A stretch of DNA of 64,000 bases, taken from assembly GCF_055900595.2 (NCBI RefSeq), contig NZ_CM148325.1, one strand, 5' to 3'. The notes under the pieces are model-generated. The model did not search any database. It worked only from the letters and a program-made list of their open reading frames with translations, and was not told the origin of the DNA. The translations under genes and the position numbers were made by a program. Positions 3,646-61,310 of the stretch are shown piece after piece. The first letter of the stretch is position 1, and the number at the start of each line of letters is the position of its first letter.

Positions 3646-4358
3646 GCGCCTGTAAGGCTCTGTTACCAGCCGCGCCCTAACAGGCGCATACGATCTGACA
3701 TTTGCATTCAACTTCGTTACTTACGGCCCGTAAACGGGCTGCCCGGATATGGAATCGATAACTGCTCCCCCATTTTATCCTCTTCAAGCTGGTGCTTTAT
3801 GTAGTCCTGTATCTTCGCCGTGTTCTTACCCACCGTATCGACATAGTACCCTCGGCACCAGAACTCCCTGTTTCTGTATTTGAATTTCAAATCCCCAAAC
3901 TGCTCGTAAAGCATCAGACTGCTTTTCCCTTTCAGATATCCCATAAAGCCGGATACGCTCATTTTGGGTGGGATTTCCACAAGCATATGGATATGATCTG
4001 CGCAGCACTCTGCTTCCAGAATCCGTACGCTTTTCCACTCACACAGCTTTCTCAAAATACTGCCTATCGCCCTACGCTTCTCTCCGTAAAACGCCAGTCT
4101 TCGGTATTTCGGCGCAAAAACTATGTGATATTTACAGTTCCAGCGGGTGTGCGCTAAGCTCTTTTCGTCCCCCATTGGGACCCCCTTTTGATTTCTTGTT
4201 TGACACTTGCAGTTGCCAGACCGCAAGGTGTTTTAACAAATCAAAAGGGGTTTTAATAACTGGCTCAAAGCTGAAAGCTTTCCGGAACCCCCAGCCTAGC
4301 TGGGGGTTTTCTGTGCACAAGAAAAAAGGCCCGCAAGCGGACCTTTTATAAGGGTGGG
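3646..4358 (-). mobile_element. IS200-type insertion sequence (IS200/IS605 family, tnpA only); boundaries approximate (about +/-40 bp)
   Basis: Intact Y1/HuH transposase ORF, stem-loop sequestering its ribosome-binding site (around 4180..4240), perfect palindrome AACCCCCAGCCTAGCTGGGGGTT at 4284..4306, imperfect hairpins near both ends. The fabF-pabC gap is 830 bp here versus roughly 120 bp as I recall for K-12. Confidence 0.75.
3717..4175 (-). CDS. tnpA: IS200 transposase TnpA (Y1 HuH single-strand transposase)
   Basis: 152 aa from MGDEKSLAHTRWNCKYHIVFAPKYRR, with HIHMLVEIPP HuH motif and catalytic-Tyr region; ORF track begins 17 codons upstream. Confidence 0.9.
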   Translation of the reverse strand: MGDEKSLAHTRWNCKYHIVFAPKYRRLAFYGEKRRAIGSILRKLCEWKSVRILEAECCADHIHMLVEIPPKMSVSGFMGYLKGKSSLMLYEQFGDLKFKYRNREFWCRGYYVDTVGKNTAKIQDYIKHQLEEDKMGEQLSIPYPGSPFTGRK

Positions 4359-10767: not shown

Positions 10768-10953
10768 TTAACTTTGTAACGTCATAGAGTCAAAGAAAAA
10801 GGCAGCCTGTGGTTGCCTTTTGCCAATAATTCGCACACATTGCGGGTTACTGCTTTATTTTCGTTCAGTGCTGATAACGAACATCAACCTGCAAAACGAA
10901 GCGCATAGTTTAAAATGGCTATCATCAATACGCTATATCTGTTGGAAAAAAAT

Positions 10954-11538
10954 ATGCCTAAACTTATTTTAGCCTCCACCTCGCCCTGGCGTCGCGCTCT
11001 TCTGGAAAAACTGCAAATCTCTTTTGAATGTGCAGCACCCGAGGTCGACGAAACCCCACGCAGTGACGAATCACCGCGACAGTTGGTGCTTCGACTGGCG
11101 CAGGAAAAAGCGCAATCTCTGGCGTCACGTTATCCGGATCATTTAATTATTGGTTCAGACCAGGTATGTGTTCTTGATGGCGAAATCACCGGTAAACCGT
11201 TAACGGAAGAAAATGCCCGTCTGCAATTACGCAAAGCCAGCGGCAATATCGTCACCTTCTATACTGGCCTGGCGTTGTTTAATTCGGCGAATGGGCATCT
11301 GCAAACAGAAGTGGAGCCTTTTGACGTCCATTTCCGTCACCTGAGCGAGGCGGAGATTGATAATTACGTGCGTAAGGAGCATCCCCTGCACTGTGCGGGT
11401 AGCTTTAAGAGTGAAGGATTTGGCATTACGCTGTTTGAGCGTTTAGAAGGGCGTGACCCTAACACGCTGGTTGGTTTACCGCTAATCGCGCTGTGTCAGA
11501 TGTTACGTCGGGAAGGGAAAAATCCGCTGATGGGATAG
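10954..11538 (+). CDS. yceF: Maf-like nucleotide pyrophosphatase YceF
   Basis: ORF track 10915..11538 trimmed to [14 protein letters not shown] (194 aa). Confidence 0.9.
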
Positions 11539-11649: not shown

Positions 11650-12609
11650 TTAGCGCGCGTTACGCAGTTTCTGCAAACAACGCTTCAACCCCTCATCCAT
11701 CGGTGCTTCGATACGCATCACCTCACCGGTTCCCGGATGGGTAAACTTCAACGCTGCGGCGTGCAGGAACAGACGATTTAATCCCGTGCCTGCTTCAGTG
11801 AGCTGTCTGTCAAATTCACGGTCACCGTAGCGATCGTCAAAGGCAATCGGATGACCCGCATACTGTGTATGCACACGGATCTGATGAGTACGCCCAGTTA
11901 CCGGGCTACAACGCACCAGGGTGGCAAATGCATAGCGTTCTTCCACTTTAAAGCGTGTTTCCGACGGTTTACCTTCCTGACTCACACGCACGATACGTTC
12001 GCCACTTTGCAGAATATTTTTCAGCAACGGCGCTTGTACGCTCTTCACATGCGACTGCCACTGACCGCGCACCAGCGCCAGGTAATCTTTTTGCATCCCT
12101 TTTTCACGTAATTGCTCATGCAGAGAACGCAACGCCGAGCGTTTTTTCGCTACCAGCAACACACCGGAAGTGTCCCGGTCGAGACGATGTACCAGTTCAA
12201 GGAACCGCGCTTCCGGGCGCAACGCCCGTAAACCTTCGATAACGCCGAAGCTTAAACCACTGCCGCCATGTACTGCCGTACCGGAAGGTTTATTCAGCAC
12301 CAGGATATGCTCATCTTCATATAAGATGACGTCCGCCAGCGCCGCCACCTTTTGCAGATGTGGCGAAACCGCCTCCTCTTCACGTTCAGCAACGCGAACC
12401 GGTGGAATACGCACCTCATCACCTGCTTCGAGTTTATATTCAGGCTTAATACGTTTTTTGTTCACCCGCACTTCGCCTTTACGCAAAATACGGTAAATCA
12501 TACTTTTAGGTACGCCTTTCAATTGGGTACGCAAAAAGTTGTCGATACGTTGCCCCGCTTCGTCCGCGGTGATAGCAACAATTTTTACGGATGGAGTCTC
12601 TGTTTTCAT
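11650..12609 (-). CDS. rluC: 23S rRNA pseudouridine synthase RluC
   Basis: 319 aa, S4-like N-terminal domain plus RluA-family catalytic core. Confidence 0.95.
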   Translation of the reverse strand: MKTETPSVKIVAITADEAGQRIDNFLRTQLKGVPKSMIYRILRKGEVRVNKKRIKPEYKLEAGDEVRIPPVRVAEREEEAVSPHLQKVAALADVILYEDEHILVLNKPSGTAVHGGSGLSFGVIEGLRALRPEARFLELVHRLDRDTSGVLLVAKKRSALRSLHEQLREKGMQKDYLALVRGQWQSHVKSVQAPLLKNILQSGERIVRVSQEGKPSETRFKVEERYAFATLVRCSPVTGRTHQIRVHTQYAGHPIAFDDRYGDREFDRQLTEAGTGLNRLFLHAAALKFTHPGTGEVMRIEAPMDEGLKRCLQKLRNAR

Positions 12610-12819
12610 GGTGGGCGATTCTAATTAGCCAACAGGATTCGCGCCACTCATTTTTCTATGCTTATATTTAGTTTTGCACCTTATTACTTCACTACGTCAT
12701 CACTTTATTGATGGTTATTAAACCAATCACCATTAAGAAGTGAAAAAACTGTGAGTAAGCGGGTGATAAATGGTAAAAGTCATCTTGCTATAACAAGGCT
12801 TGCAGTGGAATAATGAGAA

Positions 12820-13181
12820 CGTTTCCGTGTCCATCCTTGTTAAAACAAGAAATTTTACGGAATAACCCATTTTGCCCGACCGATCATCCACGCAGCAATG
12901 GCGTAAGACGTATTGATCTTTCAGGCAGTTAGCGGGCTGCGGGTTGCAGTCCTTACCGGTAGATGGAAATATTTCTGGAGAGTAATACCCAGTCTGTTTC
13001 TTTGATAATTGCGCTGTTTTTCCGCATGAAAAACGGGCAACCGACACTCTGCGCCTCTTTGAGCTGACGATAACCGTGAGGTTGGCGACGCGACTAGACA
13101 CGAGGCCATCGGTTCACACCCGGAAAGGCGTTACTTTGCCCGCAGCTTAGTCGTCAATGTAAGAATAATGAGTAAGTTACG
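12820..13181 (+). promoter_or_regulatory. rne promoter and long structured 5' leader (RNase E autoregulation); extent approximate
   Basis: 572-bp divergent rluC/rne spacer; leader length of about 360 nt is from established knowledge of rne, not measured here. Confidence 0.5.
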
Positions 13182-16100
13182 ATGAAAAGAATGTTAATCA
13201 ACGCAACTCAGCAGGAAGAGTTGCGCGTTGCCCTTGTAGATGGGCAGCGTCTGTATGACCTGGATATCGAAAGTCCAGGGCACGAACAGAAAAAGGCAAA
13301 CATCTACAAAGGTAAAATCACCCGCATTGAACCGAGTCTGGAAGCTGCTTTTGTTGATTACGGCGCTGAACGTCACGGTTTCCTCCCACTTAAAGAAATT
13401 GCCCGCGAATATTTCCCTGCTAACTACAGTGCTCATGGCCGTCCCAACATTAAAGATGTGTTGCGTGAAGGTCAGGAAGTTATTGTTCAGATTGATAAAG
13501 AAGAGCGCGGTAACAAAGGCGCAGCACTGACCACCTTTATCAGCCTGGCAGGTAGCTATCTGGTTCTGATGCCGAACAACCCGCGCGCGGGTGGTATTTC
13601 TCGCCGTATTGAAGGCGACGACCGTACCGAATTAAAAGAAGCACTGGCAAGCCTTGAACTGCCGGAAGGCATGGGGCTTATCGTGCGCACCGCTGGCGTC
13701 GGCAAATCTGCTGAGGCGCTGCAATGGGATTTAAGCTTCCGCCTGAAACACTGGGAAGCTATTAAAAAAGCCGCTGAAAGCCGCCCTGCCCCGTTCCTGA
13801 TCCATCAGGAGAGCAACGTCATCGTTCGCGCATTCCGCGATTACTTACGTCAGGACATCGGCGAAATCCTTATCGATAACCCGAAAGTGCTCGAACTGGC
13901 GCGTCAGCATATCGCTGCATTAGGTCGCCCGGATTTCAGCAGCAAAATCAAGCTGTACACTGGTGAAATTCCGCTGTTCAGCCACTACCAGATCGAGTCG
14001 CAGATCGAGTCCGCCTTCCAGCGTGAAGTCCGTCTGCCGTCTGGTGGTTCTATTGTTATCGACAGCACTGAAGCGTTAACTGCCATTGATATCAACTCCG
14101 CACGCGCAACCCGCGGCGGCGATATCGAAGAAACCGCGTTTAACACCAACCTCGAAGCTGCCGATGAGATTGCTCGTCAGCTGCGCCTGCGTGACCTCGG
14201 CGGCCTGATTGTTATCGACTTCATTGACATGACGCCAGTCCGCCACCAGCGTGCGGTAGAAAACCGTCTGCGTGAAGCGGTGCGTCAGGACCGTGCACGT
14301 ATTCAAATCAGCCATATTTCTCGCTTTGGTCTGCTGGAAATGTCGCGTCAGCGCCTGAGTCCATCGCTGGGTGAGTCCAGCCATCACGTCTGCCCGCGCT
14401 GCTCTGGTACCGGCACCGTGCGTGACAACGAATCCCTGTCGCTCTCTATTCTGCGTCTGATTGAAGAAGAAGCGCTGAAAGAGAACACCCAGGAAGTCCA
14501 TGCCATTGTTCCTGTGCCAATCGCTTCTTACCTGCTGAACGAAAAACGCTCTGCGGTAAATGCCATTGAAACTCGTCAGGACGGCGTGCGCTGTGTGATT
14601 GTGCCAAACGATCAGATGGAAACCCCGCACTACCATGTGCTGCGCGTACGCAAAGGGGAAGAAACCCCAACGTTAAGCTACATGCTGCCGAAACTGCATG
14701 AAGAAGCGATGGCGCTGCCGTCTGAAGAAGAGTTCGCTGAACGTAAGCGTCCGGAACAGCCTGCGCTGGCAACCTTTGCCATGCCGGATGTGCCGCCAGC
14801 GCCAACCCCGGCTGAACCTGCCGCGCCTGTCGTAGCCCCAACGCCTAAAGCAACACCGGCAACACCAGCAGCTTCTGCACAACCGGGGCTGTTGAGTCGC
14901 TTCTTCAGCGCACTGAAAGCGCTTTTCAGCGGTGGTGAAGAAACCAAACCGACCGAGCAACCGGCACCGAAAACTGAAACGAAACCGGAACGTCAACAGG
15001 ACCGCCGTAAGCCACGTCAGAACAACCGTCGTGACCGTAATGAACGCCGCGACACACGTAGCGAACGTAATGAAGGCAGCGATAATCGCGAAGAAAACCG
15101 CCGTAATCGTCGCCAGGCACAGCAGCAGACTGCCGAGACACGTGAAAGCCGTCAGCAGGCTGAGGTAACGGAAAAAGCGCGTACCACCGACGAGCAGCAA
15201 GCGCCGCGTCGTGAACGTAGCCGCCGCCGTAATGATGATAAACGTCAGGCGCAACAAGAAGCGAAAGCGCTGAATGTTGAAGAGCAATCTGTTCAGGAAA
15301 CCGAACAGGAAGAACGTGTACGTCCGGTTCAGCCGCGTCGTAAACAGCGCCAGCTGAATCAGAAGGTGCGTTACGAGCAAAGCGTAGCCGAAGAAACGGT
15401 AGCCGCACCAGTGGTGGAAGAAACTGCCGCTGCCGAAACCATCGTTCAGGAAGTGCCTGCTCCGCGTACAGAACTGGCGAAAGTCCCGCTGCCAGTCGTA
15501 GCGCAAACTGCGCCGGAACAGCAGGAAGAGAACAATGCTGATAACCGTGATAACGGTGGCATGCCGCGTCGCTCTCGCCGCTCGCCTCGTCACCTGCGCG
15601 TAAGTGGTCAGCGTCGTCGTCGCTATCGTGACGAGCGTTACCCGACCCAGTCGCCAATGCCGTTAACCGTAGCGTGCGCGTCTCCGGAACTGGCCTCTGG
15701 CAAAGTCTGGATCCGCTATCCGATTGTACGTCCGCAAGATGTACAGGTTGAAGAGCAGCGCGAACAGGAAGAAGTACAAGTGCAACCGATGGTGACTGAG
15801 GTCCCTGTCGCCGCCGCTGTCGAACCGGTTGTTAGCGCACCGATTGTTGAAGAAGTGGCTGAAGTCGTAGAAGCCCCCGTTCAGGTTACCGAACCGCAAC
15901 CGGAAGTGGTTGAAACGACGCATCCTGAAGTGATTGCCGCCGCGGTAACTGAACAGCCGCAGGTGATTACCGAGTCTGATGTTGCCGTAGCCCAGGAAGT
16001 TGCAGAACACGCAGAACCGGTGGTTGAACCGCAGGAAGAGACGGCTGATATTGAAGAAGTTGCCGAAACTGCTGAGGTTGTGGTTGCTGAGCCTGAAGTT

Positions 16101-16367
16101 GTTGCTCAACCTGCCGCGCCAGTCGTCGCTGAAGTCGCAGCAGAAGTTGAAACGGTAGCTGCGGTTGAACCTGAGGTCACCGTTGAGCATAACCACGCTA
16201 CCGCGCCAATGACGCGTGCTCCGGCTCCGGCATATGTTCCGGAGGCACCGCGTCACAGTGACTGGCAGCGCCCTGCTTTTACCTTCGAAGGTAAAGGTGC
16301 CGCAGGTGGTCATACGGCAACGCATCATGCATCTGCCGCTCCTGCGCGTCCGCAACCTGTTGAGTAA
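13182..16367 (+). CDS. rne: ribonuclease E
   Basis: 1061 aa: S1/catalytic N-terminal half ([30 protein letters not shown]) and low-complexity Arg/Glu/Pro-rich C-terminal scaffold. Confidence 0.98.
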
Positions 16368-34877: not shown

Positions 34878-34928
34878 TTATCCTTTGTGTCCGGCAAAAA
34901 CATCCCTTCAGCCGGAGCATAGAGATTA

Positions 34929-53586: not shown

Positions 53587-54340
53587 GTTGTCACCCTGGA
53601 CCTGGTCGTACATTTAAGAAATTAAATCATTTCAACTTGGTTGTTAACGCAACCTGTATTTTGTTAACGCCGCGTTACGATGGAAAGTATGTCTGCGGAA
53701 ATATTTTTAATAACTCACCTGCGCGTTGTATTTTTCTTTTTTTGTTCATACCAAAGTATTAAAACCCACGTAAATACGCTGTTATCTACGCAAAAAAATA
53801 TTTTGTTTTCTTTTAAATTTCGGTTTTCCGCAATCAAAAATCACCAGACAGTCATTCTTCTTGCCCGTCGCTGATTGCTGCGATATGTCTTGCGCACAAG
53901 CCGTGACAAACCTCGTCTTTTTGCAGTAAAAAATTGTCCACGGAGGTGTGGAGAAAAAACAAGAACGTTTTACATGACGAAAGGACTACACCGAAATATT
54001 TTTTATATGCATTATTAGCAAGTTAGCACCATTTGTATGATTTTTTAAAATTGTGCAAGAAAAACCAAATGTACAACTTTTCTATCATTTCTAAACTTAA
54101 TAAAACCTTAAGATTAACATTTTAATATAACGAGTTACATTTAGTTACATGTTTAACACTTGATTTAAGATTTGTAATGGCTAGATTGAAATCAGATGTA
54201 ATCCATTAGTTTTATATTTTACCCATTTAGGGCTGATTTATTACTACACACAGCAGTGCAACATCTGTCAGTACTTCTGGTGCTTCTATTTTAGAGGCAG
54301 CTGTCAGGTGTGCGATCAATAAAAAAAGCGGGGTTTCATC
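53587..54340. promoter_or_regulatory. csgBAC / csgDEFG divergent control region
   Basis: 754-bp AT-rich non-coding spacer between divergent csgB and csgD starts; multifactor regulation is established knowledge, sites not resolved here. Confidence 0.8.
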
Positions 54341-59159: not shown

Positions 59160-59183
59160 TTATCAAAATCATTAAGTTAAGGT

Positions 59184-59244
59184 AGATACACATCTTGTCA
59201 TATGATCAAATGGTTTCGCCAAAAATCAATAATCAGACAACAAA

Positions 59245-59252
<8 letters not shown>
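59184..59252 (-). ncRNA. IS10 RNA-OUT antisense RNA (position inferred from canonical IS10 layout)
   Basis: Canonical IS10 places pOUT transcription from about nt 115 outward to about nt 47; mapped onto this copy by offset from the outside end. Confidence 0.5.
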
Positions 59253-61222: not shown

Positions 61223-61310
61223 GGTGAGGTGTCCGAGTGGCTGAAGGAGCACGCCTGGAAAGTGTGTATACGGCAACGTATCGGGGGTTCGAATCCCCCC
61301 CTCACCGCCA
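61223..61310 (+). tRNA. serX: tRNA-Ser (anticodon GGA)
   Basis: GGTGAGGTGTCCGAGTGGCTGAAGGAGCACGCCTGGAAAGTGTGTATACGGCAACGTATCGGGGGTTCGAATCCCCCCCTCACCGCCA: class II tRNA with long variable arm and encoded CCA; hairpin plus T-run terminator follows. Confidence 0.9.

Follow-up and report, generated by a model that had tools for sequence, protein, structure and literature searches.

The spacer between rluC and rne in Escherichia coli: a control region of rne, and a minus-strand reading frame, yceQ, that is probably accidental

The genes rluC and rne diverge from a long spacer whose minus strand carries an open reading frame (ORF) of 122 codons. The question raised by this locus is whether the spacer serves the expression of rne, encodes a protein, or does both. 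We addressed it in a stretch of 64,000 nucleotides (contig NZ_CM148325.1 of assembly GCF_055900595.2), here called the window, whose species is, judged by its sequence, E. coli; the part from 12560 to 13230 is 100% identical to E. coli strain 2013C-4282, and is found in 5425 of 5426 complete E. coli genomes. An earlier note, written from the letters of the window, had placed a 572-bp spacer in front of rne, proposed that it holds the long structured leader of that gene, and regarded the ORF inside it as probably non-coding. The ends of the flanking ORFs give exactly the coordinates named for the spacer, and the ORF list confirms that the minus-strand frame lies wholly within it:

11650..12609, minus strand: rluC coding sequence (23S rRNA pseudouridine synthase), an ORF of 319 aa, so named in K-12 and in the 100%-identical strain
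12610..13181, no strand: divergent rluC/rne spacer, 572 bp, with rluC at its left boundary
12733..13101, minus strand: ORF of 122 aa with a GTG start, the yceQ (b1085) of K-12, in our reading non-coding
13182..16367, plus strand: rne coding sequence (RNase E, 1061 aa), an ORF named after K-12 and the 100%-identical strain

We hold, with a probability of about 95%, that the spacer controls rne at the transcriptional and post-transcriptional levels and that yceQ is an accidental open frame. The whole feature is already known, the spurious nature of yceQ included, and as a textbook control region the spacer offers little that is new. Its length is 552–606 bp in most Enterobacterales loci where rluC and rne can both be placed, and the longer ones either contain inserted repeats or come from a few Erwinia genomes. 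Compared with K-12, this strain shows an identity of 0.97 in 12610..12732 and 0.95 in 12733..12820, but 100% over 12821..13157, the differences lying only upstream of the leader. A scan of the spacer for terminators and inverted repeats returned none.

The main evidence for a leader is a match to the Rfam family RF00040 (rne5), which spans model positions 1–333 of 333 with 260.1 bits (E = 1.5e-80). Membership is defined by a score of at least 180 bits, the gathering score, over the full model, and the match lies 80 bits above it. It ends 5′ of the rne ATG and on the same strand, an arrangement shared by nearly all of the 120 Enterobacterales loci that we compared, and an Rfam search of 12500..13300 at a permissive E-value gave nothing except rne5. 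A promoter scan of the same interval found a single sigma-70-like site, resembling promoter p1 of rne, which ends 7 nt before 12821, where the match to the Rfam model begins, and is conserved throughout the order. Transcription of rne is thus predicted to start at about 12821 and to yield a leader of 361 nt, the length stated for the rne UTR in the literature (PMC10989929; PMC8200214). The elements of this part of the spacer are as follows:

12785..12814, plus strand: rne promoter p1 from the promoter scan (TTGCTA, 18-nt spacer, AATAAT, with an upstream TG; predicted start site 12821)
12821..13157, plus strand: rne 5′ UTR element, the cis-acting feedback sensor (RF00040)
12823..12862, plus strand: hp1, the 5′-terminal stem-loop, for which the E. 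coli minimum free energy (MFE) structure agrees with the Rfam consensus line
12873..12927, plus strand: stem-loop hp2, consensus helices 1–3 (12873–12879/12921–12927, 12883–12885/12915–12917 and 12890–12893/12901–12904), with compensatory changes at 4 of 8 lower-stem pairs
12934..12944, plus strand: 5′ arm (GGGCUGCGGGU) of a long-range stem of 11 bp, pairing with 13138..13148
13010..13039, plus strand: internal hairpin GCGCUGU...ACGGGC (helix 5; arms 13010–13017/13033–13039), with compensatory changes in 5 of 6 pairs
13040..13113, plus strand: hp3 domain, stacked helices 6–10 ending in the CGAUAACC/GGUUGGCG hairpin
13138..13148, plus strand: 3′ arm (GCCCGCAGCUU) of the long-range stem in the consensus structure
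13149..13181, plus strand: conserved stretch with few consensus pairs, holding the rne ribosome-binding region (AAGAAUAAUGAGUAAGUUACG) and followed by the AUG at 13182

Folding of the 361 nt, which the earlier note had suggested as a check, gives a divided answer. The MFE fold recovers hp1, hp2 (about 12872..12928), the long-range stem and the hp3 domain, but its energy of -103 kcal/mol is no better than that of shuffled sequences (z = -0.66). As the folding of a single sequence is therefore not discriminating, we take the evidence for the structure from covariation.

Loci were retrieved by scanning for the exact pattern of the hp2 loop, with one genome per species, and the 120 loci obtained come from Escherichia, Citrobacter, Enterobacter, Klebsiella, Serratia, Yersinia, Pantoea, Erwinia, Dickeya, Photorhabdus, Morganella and others; with few exceptions, rne begins 284–315 nt downstream of the pattern. 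RNAalifold on the 106 distinct leaders gave a consensus of 47 pairs, 21 of them with compensatory changes. When the 3′ partners were slid by 1–3 columns, the cells that could pair fell from 97.1% to 29–41%, the pairs with compensatory changes from 21 to 7–11, and the cells with such changes from 268 to 14–38, and not one of the observed values was attained in any of 500 column shuffles. The apex of hp2 (12890..12911) is invariant in the 106 leaders because the loci were retrieved by exactly that sequence; the covariation in the stems that flank it is not a product of the retrieval pattern. Covariation is thus present in hp2, in the long-range stem (98.4% of cells paired, with double changes in four pairs) and in the hp3 domain, where 98.6–100% of cells are paired and the pair 13056/13103 changes from U-A to C-G in 46 of 106 sequences. 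The sequence of hp1 varies between genera. With a full-length rne5 match, a p1-like promoter and covariation in 106 leaders, the proposal that the spacer contains a long structured 5′ UTR of rne is well borne out.

The pairs of the long-range stem also bear on the strand. Pair 12934/13148 is G-U in 58 and G-C in 43 of the 106 sequences, and 12935/13147 is G-U in 97 of 106. As several G-U pairs of the long-range stem form only on the plus strand, and would be A-C on the minus strand, they point to the plus-strand RNA as the functional molecule.

Downstream of the long-range stem, conservation in 13149..13181 is 0.98–1.00 in Enterobacteriaceae, and the initiation region of rne is described as lacking structure (PMC8200214). 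We also observed a 16-nt direct repeat (GAATAATGAGAACGTT at 12808..12823 and GAATAATGAGTAAGTT at 13163..13178, identical at 14 of 16 positions), of which one copy covers the -10/start-site region of p1 and the other the rne ribosome-binding region. Each copy is conserved throughout the order, and by a rough estimate about 0.05 such repeats would be expected per spacer by chance. A 5′-RACE end at -54, counted from the rne ATG and equal to position 13128 of the window, is given in the supplement of Mendoza-Vargas (2009). It falls past the hp3 domain but before the long-range stem's 3′ arm, and may be a processing site, possibly of RNase E, rather than a promoter.

Several rne leaders from other genera carry an insertion of about 105–127 nt that aligns to about 12961, in the variable region 3′ of the 5′ arm of the long-range stem. 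The carriers are Citrobacter (loci L039, L042, L070 and L114), Klebsiella indica (L095), Pseudocitrobacter (L026/L052), Kluyvera (L045/L097) and Enterobacter JUb54 (L085, about 250 nt), and the Kluyvera locus L097 has a second insertion at about 12854. The Citrobacter insertion is a dispersed repeat, with near-full-length copies in unannotated DNA of E. coli genomes (median 5, maximum 11 per genome). Its core resembles the ERIC/IRU consensus, with 5 mismatches in 22 positions to each ERIC primer sequence, in the expected adjacent arrangement. Evidently, the autoregulatory leader of rne tolerates a MITE-like insertion.

Upstream of p1 the spacer holds two further conserved elements:

12640..12669, plus strand: block conserved throughout the order, with the -10 box CTTATATT (12661..12668) of a distal rne promoter starting at about 12672..12676
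12749..12770, minus strand: double DnaA box (reverse complement tTTATCACCCgcTTACTCACAg) just upstream of the -35 box of p1, identical to the published motif

Conservation of the block is 0.93 in Enterobacteriaceae and 0.72 in the other families. The supplement of Mendoza-Vargas (2009) places an rne transcription start at -510 with the -10 box 'tatgCTTATATTtact', 4 nt from rnep3 of RegulonDB. The UTR from this distal promoter is about 506–510 nt long, and rne transcripts therefore span the whole yceQ ORF in antisense. Two extra promoters of rne (p2/p3), 145 and 109 nt upstream of p1, were reportedly described by Ow et al. in 2002. For an intermediate promoter, with a UTR of about 470 nt, we found no convincing placement on the sequence of the spacer. 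Elsewhere, promoters P1 to P4 are located within 555 bp (PMC8361080).

The double DnaA box comprises, on its sequence, two closely spaced 9-mers that match the ChIP-seq motif. The same motif is found in Table 1 of PMC11317965, at a DnaA ChIP-seq peak at K-12 position 1144772 assigned to '(yceQ) rne', and that study remarks that RNase E has no known link to replication. Conservation of the double box is confined to Enterobacteriaceae (0.90, compared with 0.30 in the other families of Enterobacterales).

The promoter of rluC may also lie within the block at 12640..12669; the Cappable-seq supplement in which we looked for an rluC start site has no coordinates in this region. The 16 nt before the rluC ATG (12610..12625, minus strand; ATTAGAATCGCCCACC-ATG) contain no purine-rich Shine-Dalgarno motif, and TAGAAT, a good -10 hexamer conserved throughout the order, stands 8 nt before the ATG. 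The arrangement might reflect an rluC leader that is very short or absent.

Taken with what is published, these elements suggest how the spacer would work. Transcription of rne would proceed mainly from p1 and also from the distal promoter, and either promoter would give an mRNA with a leader of 361 nt or more; the double DnaA box just upstream of p1 could be occupied by DnaA, as taken from the literature. The leader folds into hp1, hp2, the long-range stem and the hp3 domain, of which RNase E would recognise hp2, named in the literature as its binding sensor, and, to a lesser degree, hp3. According to the literature, excess RNase E activity would then speed the decay of its own mRNA and so keep the level of the enzyme constant. 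Feedback in cis through the leader is described in PMC10989929 and PMC2532720, and is traced in the former to Jain and Belasco (1995), Diwa et al. (2000) and Schuck et al. (2009). The element in the window is identical to that of K-12, and by the published E. coli experiments the leader here should confer RNase E-dependent feedback.

We now turn to the minus-strand ORF. In the annotation of K-12 MG1655, yceQ is a 'DUF2655 domain-containing protein' of 106 aa that starts at an internal GTG, at 13047 of the window. From this GTG on, the K-12 protein and the product of this strain share 102 of 104 residues, with one change from A to F, and the ORF stops two codons earlier here, TGC having changed to TAA. 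Searches of the current Pfam-A and NCBIfam at E ≤ 1 gave no match for the ORF of the window, and NCBIfam gave none for K-12 YceQ. Genomes annotated by PGAP, including the 100%-identical strain, have nothing annotated between rluC and rne. In NZ_CP027579.1 (locus L002) the locus tags jump from C6996_RS07725 (rluC) to C6996_RS07735 (rne), and the missing RS07730 suggests that a feature, probably yceQ, was once annotated and then withdrawn by PGAP.

Protein databases do hold 'homologues' of YceQ, of 68–156 aa and with a query coverage of 29–99%. The sole part common to all of them is a 23-residue segment, which is the reverse translation of the invariant core of hp2 and the long-range stem. The conserved RNA core, read on the reverse strand, is thus what the protein family DUF2655 was once built on, and the apparent conservation of the YceQ protein is only the reverse-strand translation of this strongly conserved RNA.

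Could yceQ nevertheless be a real gene, young and restricted to Escherichia, that is weakly translated from an antisense transcript starting in the rne leader or gene? We traced the E. coli frame through 50 Enterobacteriaceae-level sequences with an identity of 76–100% over the leader. The frame is intact in the five that belong to Escherichia (the window, K-12, E. albertii and two more E. coli records), as expected for such a gene, but in none of the other 45, which carry 1-nt indels (for example at 12806, 12821, 12868 and 12985) and/or 1–9 in-frame stops, even though the DNA is 76–93% identical. Within E. coli and Shigella, too, the database variants of YceQ have at least four different C-termini, some in shifted frames, of which some may be assembly errors. 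Over 118 genomes, the longest minus-strand ORF over the leader has a median length of 60 aa, compared with 49 aa on the plus strand.

The pattern of substitutions is not that of a protein either. Variable columns are spread over codon positions 1, 2 and 3 of the yceQ frame as 61, 53 and 64 (chi-square p = 0.58), and pairwise differences as 948, 517 and 814, without a third-position bias; for the first 105 codons of rne and rluC, taken as controls, the pairwise differences are 138/69/1463 and 283/99/1932. Comparison with three gap-free Citrobacter sequences gives a pN/pS of 0.87–0.96 for the yceQ frame, no lower than for the other two frames, and we thus see no purifying selection at the protein level. 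Codon usage gives a log-likelihood ratio of -0.136 per codon, like that of out-of-frame sequence (-0.232 ± 0.130) and below all 78 in-frame chunks of 122 codons from the 26 long genes of the window (0.316 ± 0.125, minimum -0.083); the ORF is rich in the rare codons AGG and AGA and also in Cys codons. The conservation and codon-usage checks proposed with the earlier note thus both support its view of the ORF as probably non-coding, with a frame lost in every genus outside Escherichia, no codon periodicity and codon usage like that of a wrong frame.

The length of the ORF speaks somewhat for a gene, in that an ORF of at least 122 aa arose in 1.5% (P = 0.015) of 5000 simulated spacers (first-order Markov sequences of 572 bp and the same composition), where the median longest ORF was 62 aa. 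The six frames of the 64-kb window hold 89 ORFs of at least 122 aa, and the length is mildly unusual for one spacer and unremarkable genome-wide. We also observed two antisense ORFs, at 14673..15593 (minus strand, 306 aa) and 14926..15657 (minus strand, 243 aa), inside the repetitive, Arg/Glu/Pro-rich C-terminal half of rne, which indicates that long spurious ORFs are common here.

A translated yceQ could further claim a Shine-Dalgarno-like AGAGG that precedes the GTG at 13047 by 6 nt, its annotation as b1085 in K-12 and its long-standing place among the essential genes of the Keio and PEC lists (PMC5821084). The last point is accounted for by rne: according to Goodall et al. (2018; PMC5821084), the call was made because an rne promoter sits inside the ORF, and many TraDIS insertions are found in yceQ, only in the orientation that keeps rne transcribed. 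Price et al. (2016; PMC5053530) found zero ribosome-profiling reads for YceQ in three conditions, a frame disrupted in some strains and viable transposon insertions, and concluded that no protein is encoded by yceQ. Binding of dCas9 was harmful only on the strand where it blocks rne transcription (Rousset et al., 2018; PMC6242692), and was tolerated on the coding strand of yceQ. Nor did our scan of 12500..13300 find a promoter-like site on the minus strand. We therefore consider it very improbable that yceQ is a de novo gene of very recent origin, rarely or conditionally translated, whose frame is kept open in Escherichia; if it were, one and the same 300 nt would serve both an essential structured RNA and a nascent peptide.

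A related thought is that the minus strand of the leader acts not through a protein but as an antisense RNA modulating rne or rluC. The minus strand does fold somewhat better than shuffled sequences (z = -1.91), but such a value is expected, since most helices of a structured RNA recur in its reverse complement; the pairs 12934/13148 and 12935/13147, by contrast, form as G-U on the plus strand only. ExcludonFinder lists rne–yceQ as a divergent overlap, a trivial entry given that the UTR of rne overlaps the annotation of yceQ. The lack of a minus-strand promoter-like site in the scanned interval counts against an antisense RNA as it does against the gene, and guides on that strand were without effect on fitness (PMC6242692). 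This we regard as the least probable of the readings, slightly behind even a translated yceQ, and we favor the reading of the spacer as the control region of rne with yceQ as an accidental frame.

The treatment of yceQ as coding sequence has had costs. During genome synthesis, three codons of yceQ resisted replacement by 'synonymous' serine codons (PMC7614783). In the annotated yceQ, the first three TCG/TCA codons fall on leader positions 183–224:

13042–44, minus strand: TCG codon, in the near-invariant ACCG/CGGU helix
13027–29, minus strand: TCA codon, in the loop of the 13010–13039 hairpin
13003–05, minus strand: TCA codon, in the single-stranded stretch just 5′ of the 13010–13039 hairpin

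We infer, from their spacing only, that these are the three published codons. As yceQ is still a protein in the K-12 reference, the locus is a matter of annotation hygiene, and the comparison of 118 genomes illustrates cleanly how a false protein family can arise from a conserved structured RNA.

We point out that the window holds other matches to Rfam families above their gathering scores, namely the sRNA SraB between yceD and yceF (10792..10960, minus strand), STnc490 (4185..4308, minus strand), ES056 (54194..54285, plus strand), an IS10-type RNA-OUT (59183..59252, minus strand), the pyrC leader (34879..34928, plus strand) and a tRNA (61223..61307, plus strand).

In comparison with known systems, the leader is the same element as RF00040 rne5 of E. 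coli, in the same position, on the same strand and with a predicted UTR of the same 361 nt, and we see no substantive difference. The pairs ypaB/nrdA, sroG/ribB and psrO/pnp (PMC6242692) are likewise cases in which an annotated feature appears essential only by covering the promoter or leader of an essential neighbour, and they share with yceQ the strand-specific effect of CRISPRi. Unlike these three, yceQ overlaps a structured feedback leader, 361 nt long, whose conservation has spawned a spurious protein family.
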